Assembly: GCA_031422435.1 (NCBI GenBank)
Contig: JANPLU010000107.1
Location: 1 to 64,000, forward strand
Origin: Acaryochloridaceae cyanobacterium VAR_48_metabat_390
Lineage (GTDB): Bacteria > Cyanobacteriota > Cyanobacteriia > Thermosynechococcales > Thermosynechococcaceae
DNA length: 64,000 bases
Direction: 5' to 3'
Part shown: one piece after another, positions 128 through 28,242 of the stretch
Layout of the letters: the number at the start of each line of letters is the position of its first letter
How positions within the stretch are numbered: position 1 is the first letter of the stretch
The notes under the pieces: generated by a model
Seen by the model: only the letters and a program-made list of their open reading frames with translations
Databases searched by the model: none
Told to the model about the DNA's origin: nothing
Program-made: the position numbers and the translations under genes

Positions 128-511
128 ATGAAACCAGCGATTGAATTTTTTGAACGAGTGAAAGAGCATTGTGGTGACTATGACCCCGATACAGCGTTTG
201 CAATAATCAGAACATTGTTTGAGATGGCACCGACGCAACAGTTTCGAGATGAACTAACCGCCATCACTGGCACTGTGCCGAACCAGGATCTATCCGAGAC
301 AGAAAAACATGAAGCCGATATTGACTTACAAACGTGGTCAGAGCTTATGACGGCCATAGGCTACCGAGACACGCCCTACGAGGAACTAACCGAATTTGAT
401 CAGGTGACAGACCGGATGGGACTTGAAAAGTTCGAGCAGCTCTACCAACTGTTTGACCCTGCGATGAAAGCTGAATGTCTGGCTATCATCAATAAGAAAT
501 TAGGGCGCTGA
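128..511 (+). CDS. Hypothetical protein (start re-set to ATG 128; may be the 3' remnant of a gene cut by IS1)
   Basis: The ORF-track start at 65 lies inside the IS1 end; the first ATG outside the IS is at 128. Confidence 0.55.
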   Translation: MKPAIEFFERVKEHCGDYDPDTAFAIIRTLFEMAPTQQFRDELTAITGTVPNQDLSETEKHEADIDLQTWSELMTAIGYRDTPYEELTEFDQVTDRMGLEKFEQLYQLFDPAMKAECLAIINKKLGR

Positions 512-790: not shown

Positions 791-1416
791 GTCAAAACCC
801 TTGCCCCATAGGGGTTTGACGTGATGACTTAAGGGGCGATCGCCTCAGATAAAAGGGAAAAGTGGCAGTCTGTGGACTGCTGAAATAGACAGATACCTTA
901 CACAGAGCGGTTTTGAGGTGGCAGTTTTTAGCCTAGATCTCAGTATTTCTCAGTATTGAGACCTCGACAGAAGTAAAGACCGTTCAGGGAGTAGTCCGAA
1001 CGGTCGCGCCATAAGGGCGGCAACCTGTGGACGGCTGAAATAGATGAATGCCTTGCTCAGTGTGGGTTAGAGGTGGCAGATTGAGCAGTGATCGCCATGG
1101 ATGGGGTGACGTGTTTTTGACCCTAAAAATAGACCGATACCTTGCCCAGTGTGGGTTAGAGGCGACCGCCATTAATGACCTAGCAGCTTCTCTATGCAGG
1201 GAACGTGGCAAAATGATTGGATTTTATAGATTAGTCCGCACCCCTAAAGTCCTACCCTGCAAAGCTTTTAAGCATTTTAGACAAGGTTAGGTGCGCACCA
1301 TCTTTTTAGCAAATCCGATATTCCGGCAAAGCTCCTAAGCTAAAGGGTTTCAGATCCTATCGCGGCATTCCGCGAAAGCTTTACGGGCTGGGAGTTATGG
1401 GTCTATGTAGGGGTTT
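791..1416. repeat. Non-coding array of about 7 dif/Xer-like dyad sites (6-bp arm, 11-bp core, 6-bp arm), some within ~61-bp direct repeats
   Basis: AAACCC-TTGCCCCATAG-GGGTTT (795), GATACC-TTACACAGAGC-GGTTTT (892), AATGCC-TTGCTCAGTGT-GGGTTA (1047), GATACC-TTGCCCAGTGT-GGGTTA (1136), AAAGTC-CTACCCTGCAA-AGCTTT (1246), AAAGCT-CCTAAGCTAAA-GGGTTT (1328), AAAGCT-TTACGGGCTGG-GAGTTA (1375); direct repeats 864-924 and 1019-1079. Confidence 0.7.
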
Positions 1417-1436
1417 CACTTTTCAGGATTGACCCT

Positions 1437-1471
1437 AAAAAGCCCCTAAGAGTAAAGATCTTAGGGGCTTT
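1437..1471 (-). terminator. Intrinsic terminator downstream of 1517..2032
   Basis: AAAGCCCCTAAGA-gtaaaga-TCTTAGGGGCTTT stem followed by a T-run on the minus strand. Confidence 0.7.
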
Positions 1472-1516: not shown

Positions 1517-2032
1517 TTATGCAGCTACTGAGTCAGGTTGCTTTACGGGTGATTCGGCAAACTTGAGCTTGAACCAGTCCTGACCGCCTTTGAGCGCGTC
1601 CCCAAGGGTATTGAAGTACAGCGCCTTTTCAGGGCTTAAAACCTCAAAATCATTTGACACAATTTTGAAGGTAAACCCAAACTGAGTAAGGATTGGAACA
1701 GCGAACCCTCGACGAAAGGTATTGGTTATTAAGCGGTCATTGTTTGGAATAGTGCAGTAACAATTCTCTCCTTTGTCCCACATCACGTTGGGTATATTGA
1801 ACATGATCCGCGCTTCCTTAAATGTCAGATCATCCGTTACCCCGTCTGGGTTATTAAGTTCATGGATGACTGTTTCTAAATCGCTGCTCAAATCACTAGC
1901 CACAGCAGCAAAAGCATCTGAAATACTTGCACTCTCCTCAAGCCCCAGAAGTGCATGGAAAAGGACTTCTACTCGTTTCTGAATATTGCCTAAGACATCA
2001 AGAGGATGAATCTTTTGAGTTAGTGTAGTCAT
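1517..2032 (-). CDS. Hypothetical protein of the integrated element
   Basis: In-frame ATG (MTTLTQK) at 2032 preceded by GGAG RBS; followed by a terminator. Confidence 0.65.
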   Translation of the reverse strand: MTTLTQKIHPLDVLGNIQKRVEVLFHALLGLEESASISDAFAAVASDLSSDLETVIHELNNPDGVTDDLTFKEARIMFNIPNVMWDKGENCYCTIPNNDRLITNTFRRGFAVPILTQFGFTFKIVSNDFEVLSPEKALYFNTLGDALKGGQDWFKLKFAESPVKQPDSVAA

Positions 2033-2121
2033 GATTTTCTCCAATAGGTAATAAGGTTTCGATTTCAAATCCAAGGGGTGTGGGCAGTAGATGGCACTGC
2101 CCAAGCCATGTAATACACGGC

Positions 2122-2487: not shown

Positions 2488-2727
2488 ATGCCCAAAGGAA
2501 ACCCTAATCCGGTTATCCCACCGGAGTTCAAGGAAAAGCAGTTTAAACGCAGCGATGGTACGACTGAGCCACTAGCCGAAAAAATCTTAGCCGTGAGGGT
2601 TTCTGCTGAAGTCGATAAGGTTGTGCGATCGCTTCCTCAAAAAGCAGCATGGCTACGCCGCGTCATCACTGAAGCCGCACAGCGTGAGCTGATGAACAAA
2701 AGGGAGGGCGATGGAGCCAACCCTTGA
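2488..2727 (+). CDS. Small RHH-like DNA-binding protein of cyanobacterial mobile elements
   Basis: MPKGNPNP...EPLAEKILAVRVSAEVDKVVRSL..KAAWLRRVITEAA pattern; AAGGA RBS. Confidence 0.7.
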   Translation: MPKGNPNPVIPPEFKEKQFKRSDGTTEPLAEKILAVRVSAEVDKVVRSLPQKAAWLRRVITEAAQRELMNKREGDGANP

Positions 2728-3207: not shown

Positions 3208-3326
3208 AAGAAATCTAGGGATACTACAGCCCGTAATCTTTGGGCGCTTACCCCGAAATCTACCCCGCTATTTTATTGATAATGCCTGAAAGCTTTACAG
3301 TGTAAACTCTCTAGCTCCTTATGACC

Positions 3327-3373
3327 CTTCACTCGTAATGAAGAAGTCGTGTGTTCGAGTCACATCAGGAGCT
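3327..3373 (+). tRNA. Displaced 3' fragment of tRNA-Thr(CGT), marking the att junction of an integrated element
   Basis: Anticodon arm CTTCA-CT CGT AA-TGAAG, variable loop AAGTC, T arm GTGTG-TTCGAGT-CACAT, acceptor 3' strand CAGGAGC-T; no D arm upstream. Confidence 0.85.
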
Positions 3374-3506
3374 TTAGAGAATGTTTCAGTGCCGGAATAT
3401 TAATTTTCTGATGCTTTTCTGTTCTAGATGTTAGAAAGGTGAATGTATTGAGGGACTGTGTCGAGTGTACTCCTTCACAGCCTTTTTGTTTAAGTCGGCA
3501 ATTTTG

Positions 3507-5945
3507 ATGGATAAAAAAGCGCTCAGCGAAAGCGATATTTGTGCCAAGTTTATTACTCCAGCGGTTTTACAGTCTGGCTGGGATGAGGCGACGCAGATTC
3601 GTCGAGAAGTTTATTTTACAAAAGGGCGAATTATTGTACGCGGTAAACTCGTCTCTCGCGGCAAGGCCAAGCGTGCTGATTATGTGCTGTATTACCAGCA
3701 TTTGGCAATCGCCCTGATTGAAGCAAAAGACAATACCCATGCCATCAGCGACGGACTGCAGCAGGCATTAGACTATGCCACAACCCTTGATATTCCGTTT
3801 GTGTTTTCATCCAATGGGGACGGGTTTCTGTTTCACGATTGTACAGTCACTCAAGACGCGATTGAAACCCCGTTGACCCTCAATGAATTTCCCTCTCCTC
3901 ATACTTTGTGGGCAAAATACCGTGATTGGAAAGGGCTGATTCCAGAGCAAGAAAAGCTGATTTTACAGCCCTATTATGACGATGGCAGCGGCAGGGAGCC
4001 GCGCTACTATCAGCGCAATGCAATTAATGCCGCCACAGAGGCGATCGCCAAAGGGCAAAATCGAATTTTGCTGGTAATGGCGACGGGTACGGGCAAAACC
4101 TATACGGCATTTCAGATCATTTGGAGGCTCTGGAAGGGTGGAAAAAAGAAGCGCATTCTGTTTTTGGCAGATCGAAATGTGTTGATCAACCAAACGATGG
4201 TGAATGATTTTCGTCCGTTTGGCGGCAAGATGGCGAAGCTGAGTACGGCCTCGAATACCATTGAGCGAAGTGATGGCAGTACAGTTGAGCTAACCACGGC
4301 GATCGACAAAAAGCGCCGAATTAATCCGGCCTATGAAATTTATCTAGGGCTTTACCAGGCGATTACGGGGCCTGAGGAGAGGCAAAAGCTGTATCGGGAG
4401 TTTTCCCCTGGCTTTTTTGATTTGATTGTGATTGATGAGTGTCATCGGGGCAGCGCTGCGGAGGATTCGGCTTGGCGTGAGATTTTAGAATATTTCGGCA
4501 CCGCAACTCAGATTGGTTTGACGGCTACACCCAAGGAAACTCAATACGTTTCTAACATCCATTATTTTGGCGAATCGGTTTACACCTACACGCTAAAACA
4601 AGGTATCCGTGACGGCTTTTTGGCACCCTACAAGGTGATTAAGGTGCATTTAGATGTAGATGTGGTGGGCTATCGTCCGAAGCTGGGCGAAACCGATGCC
4701 CAGGGACACGAAATTGCTGATCGCATCTATAACCAAAAGGACTTTGACCGAAATCTGGTGATTGATGAACGCACGAAACGGGTGGCGAAGTGGGTATCGG
4801 ATTTTCTGAAGGAAAGTGGTGATCGCTTCCAAAAGACCATTGTGTTTTGTGTGGATGTAGAACACGCGGCGCGGATGCGTCAGGCGCTGGTAAATGAAAA
4901 TGGGGACTTGGTGCAGCAAAATTCGCGATACGTCATGCGGATTACGGGAGACGATGATGTTGGTAAAGCGCAGCTCGATAACTTTATCGACCCTGAATCG
5001 AAGTATCCGGTGATTGTTACTACGTCTCGATTGCTGTCAACAGGAGTGGATGCCCAAACTTGCCGCCTCATTGTGTTGGAGCGTGAGGTGGGTTCGATGA
5101 CGGAGTTTAAGCAGATTGTGGGTCGGGGGACGCGGGTGCATGAAGACACCCAGAAGTATTACTTCACGCTGATTGATTTCCGTAAGGCCACCAACCATTT
5201 TGCAGATCCAGACTTTGATGGCGATCCGGTACAGATTTATGAGCCAGGGGAAGATGACCCTTTAACCCCGCCGGAGCTGCCGCCGCTGAGTGGCGAAGGG
5301 GAAGATGAAACAATCATAGAAACGCTGCCGCCAGATATTTCATTGCCCTTGGGCATTCCTGGCGTGGCTGAGCCACAGGGAAAATACTACATTCAGGGTA
5401 AACCTGTGCGGGTGCTAACGGAGCGGGTGGAGTATCTAGACGAAAATGGCAAGTTAGTGACAGAATCGCTGCGGGATTATTCCCGAAAGACTTTACGCAA
5501 ACAGTTTGCCAGTCTTGACCAGTTTTTGCGCCGCTGGAGAACGGCGGAGCGCAAGGAGGCCATTATGGCGGAGCTGGCAGAGGAAGGGCTATTGCTAGAG
5601 CCACTCATGGAAGAGGTGGGAAAAGACCTTGACCCCTTTGATTTGATTTGCCATATTGCCTTCGATCAGCCGCCATTGACCCGCCGCGATCGCGCGGAGA
5701 ATGTGCGTAAGCGTGACTTTTTTACAAGATATAGCCCTCAAGCGAGGGCGGTATTAGAGGCGCTGCTGTCTAAGTACCAAGATGAAGGGGTTGTTTCCGG
5801 GCTAGACGATCTGCGTATTTTGCAGATTGCGCCGTTTAACAATATGGGGACTGTGCCGCAGTTGATAAAACAATTTGGTGGTCGCCCTGATTACGAACGG
5901 GCGGTACATGAGCTACAAACGGCACTCTATCAAGATGTCGTTTAG
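3507..5945 (+). CDS. hsdR: Type I restriction endonuclease subunit R (EcoAI/EcoEI type IB-like)
   Basis: ADYVL...IEAK nuclease motif, MATGTGKT, DECH, TATP, QIVGRGTR helicase motifs; EcoEI-like C-terminus. Confidence 0.95.
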   Translation: MDKKALSESDICAKFITPAVLQSGWDEATQIRREVYFTKGRIIVRGKLVSRGKAKRADYVLYYQHLAIALIEAKDNTHAISDGLQQALDYATTLDIPFVFSSNGDGFLFHDCTVTQDAIETPLTLNEFPSPHTLWAKYRDWKGLIPEQEKLILQPYYDDGSGREPRYYQRNAINAATEAIAKGQNRILLVMATGTGKTYTAFQIIWRLWKGGKKKRILFLADRNVLINQTMVNDFRPFGGKMAKLSTASNTIERSDGSTVELTTAIDKKRRINPAYEIYLGLYQAITGPEERQKLYREFSPGFFDLIVIDECHRGSAAEDSAWREILEYFGTATQIGLTATPKETQYVSNIHYFGESVYTYTLKQGIRDGFLAPYKVIKVHLDVDVVGYRPKLGETDAQGHEIADRIYNQKDFDRNLVIDERTKRVAKWVSDFLKESGDRFQKTIVFCVDVEHAARMRQALVNENGDLVQQNSRYVMRITGDDDVGKAQLDNFIDPESKYPVIVTTSRLLSTGVDAQTCRLIVLEREVGSMTEFKQIVGRGTRVHEDTQKYYFTLIDFRKATNHFADPDFDGDPVQIYEPGEDDPLTPPELPPLSGEGEDETIIETLPPDISLPLGIPGVAEPQGKYYIQGKPVRVLTERVEYLDENGKLVTESLRDYSRKTLRKQFASLDQFLRRWRTAERKEAIMAELAEEGLLLEPLMEEVGKDLDPFDLICHIAFDQPPLTRRDRAENVRKRDFFTRYSPQARAVLEALLSKYQDEGVVSGLDDLRILQIAPFNNMGTVPQLIKQFGGRPDYERAVHELQTALYQDVV

Positions 5946-5997
5946 TTACTGTACGATTGCGGACTGATATGTAACCGATTCAAGCGCTGCTTAAACT

Positions 5998-7454
5998 ATG
6001 TCTGTTCGTAATACGGTTAAGTCCATTCAGGACATCATGCGTCAAGATTCGGGTGTGGATGGCGATGCCCAGCGCCTTTCGCAGCTTTGCTGGATGTTTT
6101 TTTTGAAGATTATCGATGACCAGGATCAAGAGCTGGATCTGCTGAATTCTGAATACCGATCGCCCATTCCTGAAACCTATCAGTGGCGGAACTGGGCGGC
6201 TGACCCTGAAGGAATTACGGGGGATGAGCTGCTGAATTTTATCAATATCGATCTTTTTCCAGAATTGAAGGATCTGCCGATTACAGGGAAAAATGCGAAC
6301 CGCTGTCGGGTGGTGCGCGATTTGTTTGAGGATGCCAATAACTACATGAAGTCGGGGCAGTTGCTACGGCAGGTGGTCAATAAAATCGGCGAGGTGGATT
6401 TTAATAATCTGGCCGATCGCCAGCATTTTGGCGATATCTATGAGCAGTTGCTCAATGACTTACAGAGCGCAGGAAATGCGGGTGAATTTTATACGCCCCG
6501 TGCGGTGACGGCGTTTATGGTAGAGGCAATCGATCCAAAGCCTGGTGAGGTGTTGTTTGACCCCGCCTGCGGGACGGGTGGTTTTTTGACTTGCGCCATT
6601 CGACATATGCGCGATCGCTATGTCAAAAAAGTTGAGGATGAACAGGAGATGCGATTGGCGCTGCGAGCGGTAGAGAAAAAGCAGTTGCCTCATATGTTGT
6701 GCGTGACCAATATGCTGCTGCACGGCATTGAAGACCCTAGTTTTGTGCGCCATGACAATACGCTGGCGCGGTCTTATGTGAGCTATGGCGCGGGCGATCG
6801 CGTGGATGTGATTTTGACGAATCCGCCGTTTGGGGGGCGGGAGGAGGGTGGAATTGAGAGCAACTTCCCGAAGCAGTTCCAGACAAGGAGACGGCGGATT
6901 TATTTTTGGCGCTGATTGTGCGCTTGCTGAAGACAAGGGGACGGGCGGCTGTGGTGTTGCCGGATGGTTCGCTGTTTGGGGAGGGTGTGAAGACGCGGCT
7001 GAAGGAGCATTTGCTAGAGGAGTGTAATCTGCATACGATTGTGCGGTTGCCCAATAGCGTATTTAAGCCCTATGCCAGTATTGGCACGAATCTATTATTT
7101 TTTGAGAAGGGGGAGCCAACGCAGGAGGTTTGGTTTTATGAGCATCAGGTTCCGGCGGGGCAGAAGGCGTATTCGATGACGAGGCCGATCCGGCTGGAGC
7201 ATTTTAAGCCCTGTACGGAGTGGTGGGGTGGGCCAAAGCGGGTGAACCGTCAGGAGAGCGAGGTGGCTTGGCGGGTGAGTTTGGAGGATATTAAGGGGCG
7301 CAATTACAATCTAGATTTTAAAAACCCTCACACGGTGGCGGATGACCACGGCGACCCAGACGAGCTGTTAGAGAAGCTAAAGGCGGCGGAACTGGAGACG
7401 GTAATGTTACGAGATCAGCTTAAAAGCATTTTGGCTGAGGCGTTGTTGCGTTGA
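5998..7454 (+). pseudogene. hsdM: Type I RM methyltransferase subunit with a 1-bp frameshift near 6886
   Basis: GEFYTPR, DPACGTGG and NPPF motifs in 5998..6915; C-terminal half continues in another frame (ETADLFLALIVRLLK...); ACAAGGAG lacks one base. Confidence 0.9.
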
Positions 7455-7597
7455 GTGCCAATATTTTTGCAACAGGCTGTTGTAAAAATGCCTTGGGGTG
7501 AGTATTGCGATGCAAATGTGAAACAGCTTGTTTCATCATTGCTTTATAGGTCACAATCAGATTCTAAACAGATCCACCTGCATCGGAGAGGTAATTT

Positions 7598-7927
7598 ATG
7601 CTTAAAGACATTGAGTTACCGATTCACCAAATAGAGACTTTTTGTCATAAATGGCAGGTCGATGAGTTTGCTTTATTTGGATCGGTTTTACGAGATGACT
7701 TTCGCCCTGATAGCGATATTGATGTGATGGTTGAATTTAATTCCCATGCCCATCCGACTTTTGGGAGTTTAGATCAAATGGAAAATGAGTTGAAGTTCAT
7801 TTTTAATAGAGAGGTTGATTTAATTACCCGTAAGGGAATTGAATCTAGCCGCAACTATATCCGCCGTGAAAATATTTTGTCTTCTGCAAAAGTAATTTAT
7901 GCAACGCGATCCTCAATTTCTACTTGA
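7598..7927 (+). CDS. Minimal nucleotidyltransferase (MNT) antitoxin
   Basis: GS-x10-DxD motif (GSVLRDDFRPDSDID) and REVDL. Confidence 0.9.
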   Translation: MLKDIELPIHQIETFCHKWQVDEFALFGSVLRDDFRPDSDIDVMVEFNSHAHPTFGSLDQMENELKFIFNREVDLITRKGIESSRNYIRRENILSSAKVIYATRSSIST

Positions 7928-8216
7928 TATGCTGCAATCAGCAGAATTAATTGCAGCATATACTGATAAAATTTCAAAAGATGAGTTTATCCAAAATGTT
8001 CAACTTCAAGATGCGGTTATTAGACGGTTGCTGGTGATTGCAGAGGCGGCTCGTCGAGTGTCGGAGACAACCCGTCAGGAACGATTTGATATTTCATGGG
8101 CAGAGATTAACGGAATGAGAAATCGTCTGGTTCATGAATATAATGATGTTAATTTCGATATTGTTTGGGATGTTGTGCAGAATGAAATTCCAAGTTTAAT
8201 TGCGGCTCTAAAGTAA
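7899..8216 (+). CDS. HEPN (DUF86/HepT-like) RNase toxin
   Basis: RNRLVHEY = Rx4HxY motif; overlaps the MNT gene. Confidence 0.9.
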   Translation: MQRDPQFLLDMLQSAELIAAYTDKISKDEFIQNVQLQDAVIRRLLVIAEAARRVSETTRQERFDISWAEINGMRNRLVHEYNDVNFDIVWDVVQNEIPSLIAALK

Positions 8217-9922
8217 TGAATGCTGAACGTCTACTCCAAAATTTTGATCACATTTCTGATGCGCCAAATGCAGTCGCCTATCTACGTCGCTTTATTCTAG
8301 ATTTGGCAGTACGCGGCAAACTGGTAGACCAAGACCCCAGTGATGAACCCGCTTCGGAATTACTTAAGCGGATTCAGACAGAGAAAGAAAAATTAATCCA
8401 AGAAGGAAAAATCAAAAATCAGAAACCATTACCAGTTCTAGAGGAATTAGAAATTCCATTCAATATTCCTGAAGACTGGATCTGGGAACGCCTAGGAAGC
8501 ATTGGTGACTGGGGATCTGGTAGCACTCCGCCGCGTGGCAATAGTGAATATTATGATGGCGACATCACGTGGTTAAAAAGTGGTGAATTAGGTGATTGTC
8601 TTTCTTTAAAGGGTTCTGAGGAAAAGATTTCTAATATTGCTCTTCAAAAATGTTCCTTTCGCCTAAATCAGCCTGGAGATGTCTTAATTGCTATGTATGG
8701 TGCAACAATAGGCAAGTTAGCCATACTAGGCGAAACTGCTGTGACAAATCAGGCAGTGTGTGGCTGTACACCATTTAATAGTGTGTTAAATAGGTATCTC
8801 TTTATTTATCTTTTATCTCGTAGAGAGGCTTTTCATGCCCAAAGTGAAGGTGGGGCACAGCCAAATATTTCCAAGATAAAAATAATTCTTTCACCAATTC
8901 CTCTTCCTTCTCTTGCTGAACAACACCGAATCGTTGCCAAGGTAGATGAGTTGATGGGGTTGTGCGATCGCCTCGAATCCGCCCAAAAAAACCGCGAAAG
9001 CCAGCGTGATCGCCTCGTAGCCGCTAGCCTCCATCATCTGAACCAATCTGTTGAGACGGATGAGGGGTTTGGCGATCATGCTCGTTTTTATTTCAATCAT
9101 TTGTCTGAACTGACGGTGCGATCAGAGCATATTAAACAACTGCGTCAGACCATTCTCAATCTCGCTGTGCGTGGCAAACTTGTCGAACAAGATTCTAATG
9201 ATGAAACTGCGTCAGAACTGTTGAGACGGATTCAGATAGAGAAGTTAAGGTCTGAAAAAGCTGGTTTGCTTAAAAAGGATAAATCGGTTTGGGAAGGACT
9301 TCCAAAAGAAGCACCATACACTTTGCCATCGCAGTGGATTTGGACACATCTTCAAGACATCTTTGAAATATCTCGTGGTGGAAGTCCTCGACCTGCTGGC
9401 GATCCTCGTTACTTTGGTGGTTCCATACCTTGGATTACTGTTCGGGAAATCACGAAGGATAGTGGGAAATATCTTTTGAAAACTGAAACTGGCCTAACGG
9501 AAGAGGGATCCACCAGAAGCAGATTTATCAACCCTGGTGATTTACTACTTACAAATAGTGGCGCAACTCTTGGAGTTCCAAAGATCAGTAAGATCAAGGG
9601 CTGCATGAATGACGGTGTTGCTGTATTGCGGCTTTTTCACACAGAAAATGTTAACGACTTTGCCTTTTTATATTTGAATTCCCAAACACAAGCATTTCGG
9701 CAAATTAATCAAGGTATGGGGCAGCCGAATTTAAACACCCCGATCATTGCAGGTTGGTTTTTCCCCCTTCCCCCACTCGCTGAACAAGCTCGAATCATTG
9801 CCAAAGTAGATGAACTGATGGGGCTGTGCGATCGCCTCGAAACCCAACTCAGCACCACCCAATCCAACAGCCGTCGCTTGCTAGAGTCCTTGCTCCATGA
9901 AGCCTTAACCCCATCTACCTGA
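8216..9922 (+). CDS. hsdS: Type I RM specificity subunit with two TRDs
   Basis: Duplicated conserved blocks ILxLAVRGKLVxQD and PLPxLAEQxRIxAKVDELMGLCDRLE flanking two variable TRDs. Confidence 0.95.
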   Translation: MNAERLLQNFDHISDAPNAVAYLRRFILDLAVRGKLVDQDPSDEPASELLKRIQTEKEKLIQEGKIKNQKPLPVLEELEIPFNIPEDWIWERLGSIGDWGSGSTPPRGNSEYYDGDITWLKSGELGDCLSLKGSEEKISNIALQKCSFRLNQPGDVLIAMYGATIGKLAILGETAVTNQAVCGCTPFNSVLNRYLFIYLLSRREAFHAQSEGGAQPNISKIKIILSPIPLPSLAEQHRIVAKVDELMGLCDRLESAQKNRESQRDRLVAASLHHLNQSVETDEGFGDHARFYFNHLSELTVRSEHIKQLRQTILNLAVRGKLVEQDSNDETASELLRRIQIEKLRSEKAGLLKKDKSVWEGLPKEAPYTLPSQWIWTHLQDIFEISRGGSPRPAGDPRYFGGSIPWITVREITKDSGKYLLKTETGLTEEGSTRSRFINPGDLLLTNSGATLGVPKISKIKGCMNDGVAVLRLFHTENVNDFAFLYLNSQTQAFRQINQGMGQPNLNTPIIAGWFFPLPPLAEQARIIAKVDELMGLCDRLETQLSTTQSNSRRLLESLLHEALTPST

Positions 9923-27270: not shown

Positions 27271-28242
27271 ATGACCTCAGTAACCTCCCTCTTTGCGCCA
27301 GTTGAAGCAGACCTTGACCAACTGGTGGAAAACCTGAAACAGCTTGTTGGGGCTAGGAATCCAATTTTATATGACGCCGCCGAGCATCTGTTTCAAGCTG
27401 GGGGGAAGCGAATGCGACCCGCCATTGTGTTCTTGCTCTCGCGGGCGATTTCGAGCGATAACGATATTTCAACGCGTCATCGTCGTCTGGCTGAAATTAC
27501 GGAGATGATCCACACCGCCAGCTTATTCCACGATGATGTGGTAGATGAGGCCGACATGCGGCGCGGCGTAGAGACGGTCAACTATCGCTTTGGCAACCGG
27601 ATTGCCATCCAGGCCGGAGATTTTATGTTTGCTCAGGCTTCTTGGTATTTGGCGAACCTAGACAGCCTGCCCGTGGTTAAGCTGCTCTCAGAGGTGATTA
27701 AAGACTTTGCCGAAGGTGAGATTCAGCAAGGGTTGAGCAGCTTTGACACAGATGTAACTCTAGAAAGCTACTTGGAAAAGTCTTACTACAAAACTGCTTC
27801 TCTCATTGCCAATAGCGCCAAAGCTACTGGGGTTTTAAGTGATGTCTCACCCGATTTACAGGAAGACCTGTATCAGTTTGGTCGAGGGGTAGGCTTAGCG
27901 TTTCAGGTGGTAGACGACATTTTGGACTTCACGGGCACAACGGATGCCCTGGGCAAGCCTGCTGGGTCTGACCTCAAAAGCGGAAATTTAACCGCCCCAG
28001 TGCTGTTTGCCATGGAGGAAAAGCCCTACCTTCAGGTGCTAATTGAGCGGGAGCTGACCGAGCCAGGGGATTTAGAAGAGGCGATCGCCCTTATTAATAA
28101 CAGCCAGGGCATTGAGCGATCGCGGGCTTTAGCAGAATCTTTCTCTGCCCAAGCGCTCCAGCGTCTTGAAAAGCTGCCGTCTTCACCCTCTAAGCAGGCG
28201 CTGGTGGAGCTGACGGACTACATCATTAAGCGACTATATTAG
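27271..28242 (+). CDS. sds: Solanesyl diphosphate synthase
   Basis: GGKRMRP, HDDVVD, FQVVDDILD. Confidence 0.9.
   Translation: MTSVTSLFAPVEADLDQLVENLKQLVGARNPILYDAAEHLFQAGGKRMRPAIVFLLSRAISSDNDISTRHRRLAEITEMIHTASLFHDDVVDEADMRRGVETVNYRFGNRIAIQAGDFMFAQASWYLANLDSLPVVKLLSEVIKDFAEGEIQQGLSSFDTDVTLESYLEKSYYKTASLIANSAKATGVLSDVSPDLQEDLYQFGRGVGLAFQVVDDILDFTGTTDALGKPAGSDLKSGNLTAPVLFAMEEKPYLQVLIERELTEPGDLEEAIALINNSQGIERSRALAESFSAQALQRLEKLPSSPSKQALVELTDYIIKRLY

Follow-up and report, generated by a model that had tools for sequence, protein, structure and literature searches.

The element and its ends

The DNA analysed here, which we call the window, comprises the first 64,000 nucleotides of contig C107 (JANPLU010000107.1), part of a 3.7-Mb cyanobacterial assembly that contains 3855 HIP1 octamers. 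Near its left end lies a non-coding block (positions 791 to 1416), preceded by the remnant of a terminase-small-subunit-like gene and a small gene for a probable ribbon-helix-helix protein, and followed by two further genes and the right end of an integrated element (Table 1). The first 124 nucleotides are 100% identical to the start of contigs C84, C77, and C29. Behind the intact tRNA-Thr(CGT) gene on contig C25 come, in this order, a dyad, an arm-type repeat pair, and genes for a tyrosine integrase (367 aa) and a DUF3987 protein; the last of these is cut by the contig end, and the 3′ end of the element's own rep gene is missing. Judging from the att pair, C25 and C107 appear to carry the two ends of one element whose middle is unassembled.

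A sister element on C85 encodes a DUF3987 protein, two terminase small subunits (TerS), and the same 73-aa protein (99% identical). Its 182-aa protein matches the PHROG terminase small subunit (6e-15), positions 291-777 of the window are 89% identical to C85, and cargo genes lie on either side of the block there. With att, integrase, and DUF3987 on C25, a TerS remnant in the window, and Rep plus TerS on C85, the family looks PICI-like, and the block would occupy the variable slot of the element. The 79-aa protein that marks the family has six copies in the host and matches in 22 of 191 genomes.

The same element arm stands behind five host tRNA genes (Thr on C25, Ala on C45, Pro on C85, and Val on both C102 and C112), and many remnants of the family occur in the host genome. 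Three 15-bp repeats at 2345-2445, which separate the leftward gene from that of the 79-aa protein, are probably operators; other repeats take their place on C125. To the right of attR, a Type I restriction-modification locus extends over 3465-9922. A frameshift near 6906-6915 apparently splits its methylase gene, and hsdS is preceded by a nucleotidyltransferase/HEPN-like two-gene pair (all names assigned from the sequence).

Table 1. Features of the left part of the window, with coordinates, strand, and remarks.
Feature	Coordinates	Strand	Remarks
IS-like end, truncating the element and cutting contig C107	1..124		Probable IS
Terminase-small-subunit-like gene, 3′ remnant	128..511	+	45% over 38 aa to the 182-aa protein of C85
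73-aa protein, probable ribbon-helix-helix	517..738	+	RHH_1/RHH_3 feature neighbours at 0.92-0.93, a lead only
Dyad 1	795..817		19.6 bits
Repeat R1: GTGGCA/GTGGAC hexamers, dyad 892-914, GTGGCA	864..927	+	Dyad 8.2 bits
Module A, direct repeat of 10-bp period	937..955	+	Common to C85 and G007; 19/19 identical
Inverted repeat, terminator-like on the minus strand	978..1005		Absent from the run X6 variant
Repeat R2 with dyad 1047-1069	1019..1082	+	Dyad 15.7 bits
Partial repeat R3 with dyad 1136-1158	1127..1162	+	Dyad 10.6 bits
Module B	1166..1214	+	Common to C85 and G007; 76-78% identity
Dyad 5	1246..1268		17.9 bits; left flank resembles the origin arm of locus L102
Module C with dyad 1328-1350	1299..1353	+	Dyad 15.9 bits; in all four related elements, 84-85% identity
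Module D with dyad 1375-1397	1361..1418	+	Dyad 10.7 bits; common to C85 and G001, 88-93% identity
Palindrome and 13-bp hairpin, terminator-like, closing the block	1419..1471		Holds a 13.5-bit dyad, 1439-1461
Orphan gene, common to the C125 element	1517..2104	-	
79-aa protein marking the element family near attR	2488..2727	+	No Pfam match
Probable integrase arm-type repeat pair	3248..3268	+	Same pair on C25 between tRNA-Thr and integrase; putative role
Weak dyad between the arm repeats and the att core	3289..3311		6.1 bits
attR core, duplicated 3′ part of tRNA-Thr(CGT)	3327..3375	+	49/49 identical to C25:4949-4997; Rfam tRNA fragment

A cluster of 23-bp dyads

An earlier note on this DNA had described the block as a gene-free array of at least seven dif/Xer-like dyads separated by unique spacers. 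To avoid circularity, we trained a dyad matrix outside the block, using a seed-free symmetric search of width 23 on the tails of DUF3987 (rep) genes. Thirty such loci were taken, 22 had a readable 3′ end, and 16, all from other genomes, were used; the host's own and five without a clear repeat array were left out. The motif returned from the 16 tails, AAACCC-TTG-N5-YAA-GGGTTT, is the very dyad that the note had picked out.

With this matrix the block contains seven sites, starting at 795, 892, 1047, 1136, 1246, 1328, and 1375 and scoring from 8.2 to 19.6 bits. Seven, six, and four of them pass thresholds of 8, 10, and 13 bits, against means of 0.37, 0.13, and 0.02 in shuffled sequences. The note had staked its claim on a density above that of shuffled sequence, and the observed count was reached in 0 of 2000 dinucleotide shuffles, which held three sites at most. 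Moreover, no other 630-bp stretch in the genome is as dense in sites (six of at least 10 bits here; next best, four). The cluster is real and non-random. A total of seven is right when degeneracy is allowed, as the matrix does, but the literal pattern fits only three distinct sites (795, 1136, and 1328), and a further site proposed to end at 1416 falls below 4 bits. The related site just before the att core is present, although weak (Table 1).

The 61-bp direct repeats (864-924 vs. 1019-1079) are identical at exactly the 48 of 61 positions counted by hand in the note; they belong to a 64-nt family (R1 and R2, 78% identity), whose third, partial copy at 1127-1162 was also confirmed (86% over 36 nt). 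A REP-like reading of R1 was dropped because the hairpin is broken in R2. As stated in the note, no credible gene lies in 791-1416: neither of two overlapping ORFs (75 and 80 aa) has a Pfam match. No homologue of the 75-aa ORF was found, and a decayed repeat-protein gene was rejected on that ground. In the C85 block, a 126-aa ORF gave two matches in unrelated repeat proteins (E 3e-4 to 6e-4), which we judged to be due to chance.

Contrary to what the note had suggested, the geometry of the dyad is not that of dif. It measures 9+5+9 bp, with a 5-bp centre scoring best, whereas dif is laid out as 11+6+11 bp (PMC9226527). When the block sites are read with a spacer of 6, six of the seven give at most 6/11 inverted matches, and all seven dyad centres differ. 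Unlike centres would block exchange by a tyrosine recombinase. XerD exceeded the TIGR02225 cut-off in 0 of 31 cyanobacterial genomes, and the host gave no match at E ≤ 1e-30; of the eight tyrosine recombinases of the host, five were examined.

Modules of the block in sister elements

We searched 61 genomes for the block, and four showed a match, counting the host and one weak match. Among the genomes searched, the modules were seen again only in C85, G001:C153, and G007:C539. Contrary to the note, the spacers are not unique, since 937-955, 1166-1214, 1299-1353, and 1361-1418 are present in sister elements. Modules B, C, and D are collinear across the sisters and module A is displaced; the window lacks a 50-bp piece that separates modules C and D, and repeats R1 to R3 are absent from all three sisters. 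One inter-dyad stretch of C85 holds modules B, A, and C, which the window has in three different intervals, so the breakpoints lie off the dyads. In the alignment of elements that the note had proposed, modules are therefore gained, lost, and displaced, but at points off the dyads.

Contigs from public sequencing runs add to this variation. Runs X1 and X2, which belong to a single study that may itself be the source, contain a second allele of 730-850 that changes three bases of dyad 1 while keeping the motif. A contig from X2 (6.5x) joins 947 to 1103, an uncertain junction whose short side counts only 23 letters, and pieces resembling R2 and module B have other flanks in runs X3 and X6 (two other studies). 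All this would fit duplication and deletion at short shared words.

Outside the family, comparison of 740-1500 with plasmids gave no match, and with phages only two 25-bp chance matches. Viral contigs searched with four DNA patterns and two proteins yielded nothing useful. Only two of 18 genome-contig matches to a module C pattern were cyanobacterial, and three metagenome matches were unrelated. Among 350 other genomes, the R1-R3 region had matches of only 22-45 bp, in 12 of them, which we took for chance; module A, with one mismatch allowed, was matched in 21 of 400 other genomes, all lacking the block.

The dyad in rep tails, att arms, CRISPR leaders, and upstream of hup

The dyad is not particular to the block; it is a general cyanobacterial 23-bp dyad. 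Most DUF3987 3′ ends carry two dyads between mirrored hexamer arrays. Within 400 bp, the two arms repeat a single hexamer 5-17 times, and this hexamer varies from gene to gene. Such a layout probably represents an iteron origin. The PICI/SaPI and P4-like satellites share this trait (an iteron origin in the rep 3′ end) with the present family, along with a tRNA integrase, a primase-helicase-like Rep (DUF3987), and TerS. Loci L079-L108, each with its own hexamer (at least 11 types), constitute a natural set for the study of Rep-iteron specificity.

At the ends of elements, a dyad starts 8-9 bp behind five of the 40 host tRNA/tmRNA genes, namely those followed by the element arm, and all eight att arms picked by hand have one (6.1-12.1 bits). 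For CRISPR leaders, 30 cas2 loci provided 25 with a detectable array. Sites of at least 6 bits start between -142 and -125 in 17 of the 25 and near -35 in six, compared with 0-2 of 25 in the other non-overlapping leader windows. The CRISPR1 leader of Synechocystis 6803 has its highest-scoring site at -140 (10.5 bits, p 0.026). This falls inside the -180 to -100 segment whose removal cut spacer uptake in an E. coli assay (PMC6607411). Since cyanobacteria lack IHF, the authors of that study invoked an unknown host factor, and left open which factor replaces IHF at the leaders. Our site resembles this type I-D motif II region in its position within a needed segment; the paper names no binder. PMC13769266 cites IHF-like motifs for 56.5% of leaders across all types, so the leader result is not wholly new. 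No similarity between the block and CRISPR leaders was detected past the dyad. The host has cas2, although no CRISPR array came up there in a crude scan for repeats.

Sites of at least 13 bits lie upstream of hup in 11 of 29 cases from different genomes but in only three of 116 flanking segments. For comparison, a site precedes 58 of 2512 genes in the host, a control taken from the host genome only and not from the hup genomes. In loci L113-L141, which span many cyanobacterial families, a conserved variant of the dyad stands about 200 bp (about 120-240) upstream of hup, which suggests autoregulation by HU. We found no description of the dyad or of such blocks in the literature covered, which excluded most subscription papers. 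The dyad may serve as a marker for locating element ends, origins, and leaders in cyanobacterial genomes.

HU as a candidate binder

In Proteobacteria, IHF works at att arms, in origins, at CRISPR leaders, and upstream of a gene of its own family. As the dyad occupies these same places in a phylum lacking IHF, HU is its likely binder. Some host architectural protein very probably reads the dyad, and we consider it rather probable, by analogy with IHF, that HU homodimers bind it and bend the DNA. Several traits expected of a DNABII site were found: fixed positions at att arms, in origins, and in CRISPR leaders, together with the protein in the hosts (31 of 31 genomes) and a site upstream of its gene (11/29 vs. 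58/2512). The host itself has three HU copies (on C70, C34, and C72), and one of these paralogues has an Ala/Lys/Pro-rich tail.

The resemblance to the IHF sites of lambda attP and of the E. coli type I-E leader lies in the dyad between arm repeats and att core, in the fixed place within leaders, and in the occurrence in origins and upstream of a gene of the protein family. The IHF consensus is one-sided, unlike the symmetric candidate dyad. Lambda attP 27753-27775, which we take to be the H′ site, is in register with TTG-N5-CAA but scores a weak 5.9 bits, no better than other stretches there, and no informative site appeared when lambda cosB was scanned with the matrix. A point against HU as the binder is that Thermotoga HU showed no preference for its leader (PMC13769266). 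What the analysis chiefly adds is a defined motif that can be tested as the possible cyanobacterial equivalent of the IHF site; if true, a dyad-reading HU would challenge the view of HU as sequence-blind.

Possible role of the cluster

For the cluster of these putative host-protein sites, our best guess, at roughly 40%, is an auxiliary docking region for the replication proteins of the PICI-like element, on an HU-bent scaffold, in the manner of P1 incA or P4 crr. HU homodimers would bind the dyads of the block and bend the DNA; units of a short oriented hexamer and a dyad, resembling origin arms, would bind Rep away from the true origin; and the docking would tune copy number or incompatibility, as the auxiliary iteron regions P1 incA and P4 crr do. 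Changes in the block would arise from duplication and deletion at short shared words instead of the capture of cassettes at specific sites. The docking region became the best guess because two relatives, G009 and G055, carry iteron-plus-dyad units, clearer than those of the window, in the same slot before the leftward genes. We regard the cluster as an unusual form of satellite cis-region with a putative role.

In G009 (L187:13690-14180) a single scaffold carries two origin-arm-like units that differ in their repeats, and no rep gene is apparent; in G055 (L192:10830-11170) there are four units, each of an inverted repeat, a hairpin with compensatory changes, a dyad, and GCGGCAA. The G055 unit repeat is one base away from the iteron of its own Rep and is thus near-cognate. 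The G055 slot shares a 26-bp piece with the window (1420-1445, 23/26, E 0.07), and the orientations of G[CT]GGCA split 6:0 in the window, against 4:1 in G055. Like P1 incA and P4 crr, the block has repeats away from the origin; unlike those regions and PICI/SaPI, its hexamers are mixed, low in copy number, and each beside a dyad, and its function is putative.

A second proposal of the earlier note, in which the block would serve a satellite-like element as replication origin or recombinase-loading platform, survives in part: the element looks PICI-like and the dyad stands in the predicted origins of the family, but the iterons are too few. A full DUF3987 origin was rejected, the best non-dyad hexamer of the block having at most four copies in 626 bp, all in one orientation. 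Only two of the 14 flanks in the window look like those of origins (p about 0.025), among them the left flank of dyad 5 (11/16 matches to the L102 arm, p uncorrected). No close homologue of the C25 Rep with a readable tail was found in 10 genomes. Arrays in the slot seem uncommon. At least three sites within 630 bp occur in six of 45 family loci, three of which had been chosen beforehand. Among 40 loci fetched blindly, three have a cluster, none a clear slot array: one is seemingly a rep 3′ end severed by an IS, one lies within a gene, and one has no repeats.

It is rather unlikely, but worth weighing, that the block is in decay. Successive recombination between co-resident elements would then have left a patchwork of origin arms, att arms, and operators, in which the dyads still bind the host protein and the cluster is idle. 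The element is indeed cut by an IS, modules have been lost at short shared words (in the X6 variant, and module F in the window), the origin arms of G009 could be relics of a rep gene, and most related loci lack a cluster. Decay sits poorly, however, with modules C and D, which keep 84-93% identity despite unrelated upstream genes (TerS genes, a tape-measure gene, and a recombinase fragment), and with the second allele, where dyad 1 is altered and its motif preserved.

Less probable still is a cos/pac-like packaging platform, on which a terminase small subunit would sit on the oriented hexamers while HU bends the DNA, much as IHF bends it at lambda cosB. The block follows TerS-like genes in the window and on C85 and a tape-measure gene in G001, but G009 and G055 have slot arrays and, on inspection of their ORFs, no apparent TerS.

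We give little credence to the idea that the block, lying between two convergent operons, controls transcription or encodes a structured RNA. Folding z-scores of -2.0 and -4.1 (20 shuffles each) and the terminator-like hairpins at 978-1005 and 1439-1471 would suit it, as would a 13-bp palindrome of the sister blocks that recurs upstream of element genes; yet much of the folding is explained by the dyads and palindromes, and neither an Rfam family nor a sigma-70-type promoter was found inside the block.

Origin arms of several iteron types might, with a slightly smaller likelihood, act as decoys that sequester the Rep proteins of rival satellites. In the G009 slot, arms of two types share a scaffold; GTGGCA, GTGGAC, GTCCGC, and a CTCAGT pair occur together in the window; and the C85 block, which lacks the iteron of its own Rep, is not cognate to it. 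Single or double copies bind weakly, however, the similarity of the flanks to origins is not significant, and the host yielded no rival Rep that would match. A broader conjecture, about as improbable as the RNA region, would have HU read the palindrome and replace IHF in CRISPR adaptation, integration, and satellite replication alike, with satellites banking HU-scaffolded arms that sequester rival Reps as a DNA-only form of exclusion.

A cassette array driven by Xer or an integrase, the first reading offered for this DNA, appears largely refuted and is scarcely credible now: several symmetric dyads with variable DNA between them do recall dif/pdif XerCD arrays, modules are gained, lost, and displaced, cargo genes flank the C85 block, and XerD is reported to bind at dif-like sites without XerC (PMC9226527), but the sites are 9+5+9 with unlike centres, breakpoints lie off the dyads, no genes stand between sites, the spacers match neither plasmids nor phages, and XerD stays below the cut-off in all 31 genomes.

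Should the block act on replication, it would show satellites tuning or blocking this process with non-coding DNA. Finally, two other dyad clusters were noted in the host genome, one before a large helicase/methylase-like ORF (C124:1735-2825) and one before a toxin-antitoxin-like pair and a tyrosine recombinase (C61:11561-11715).
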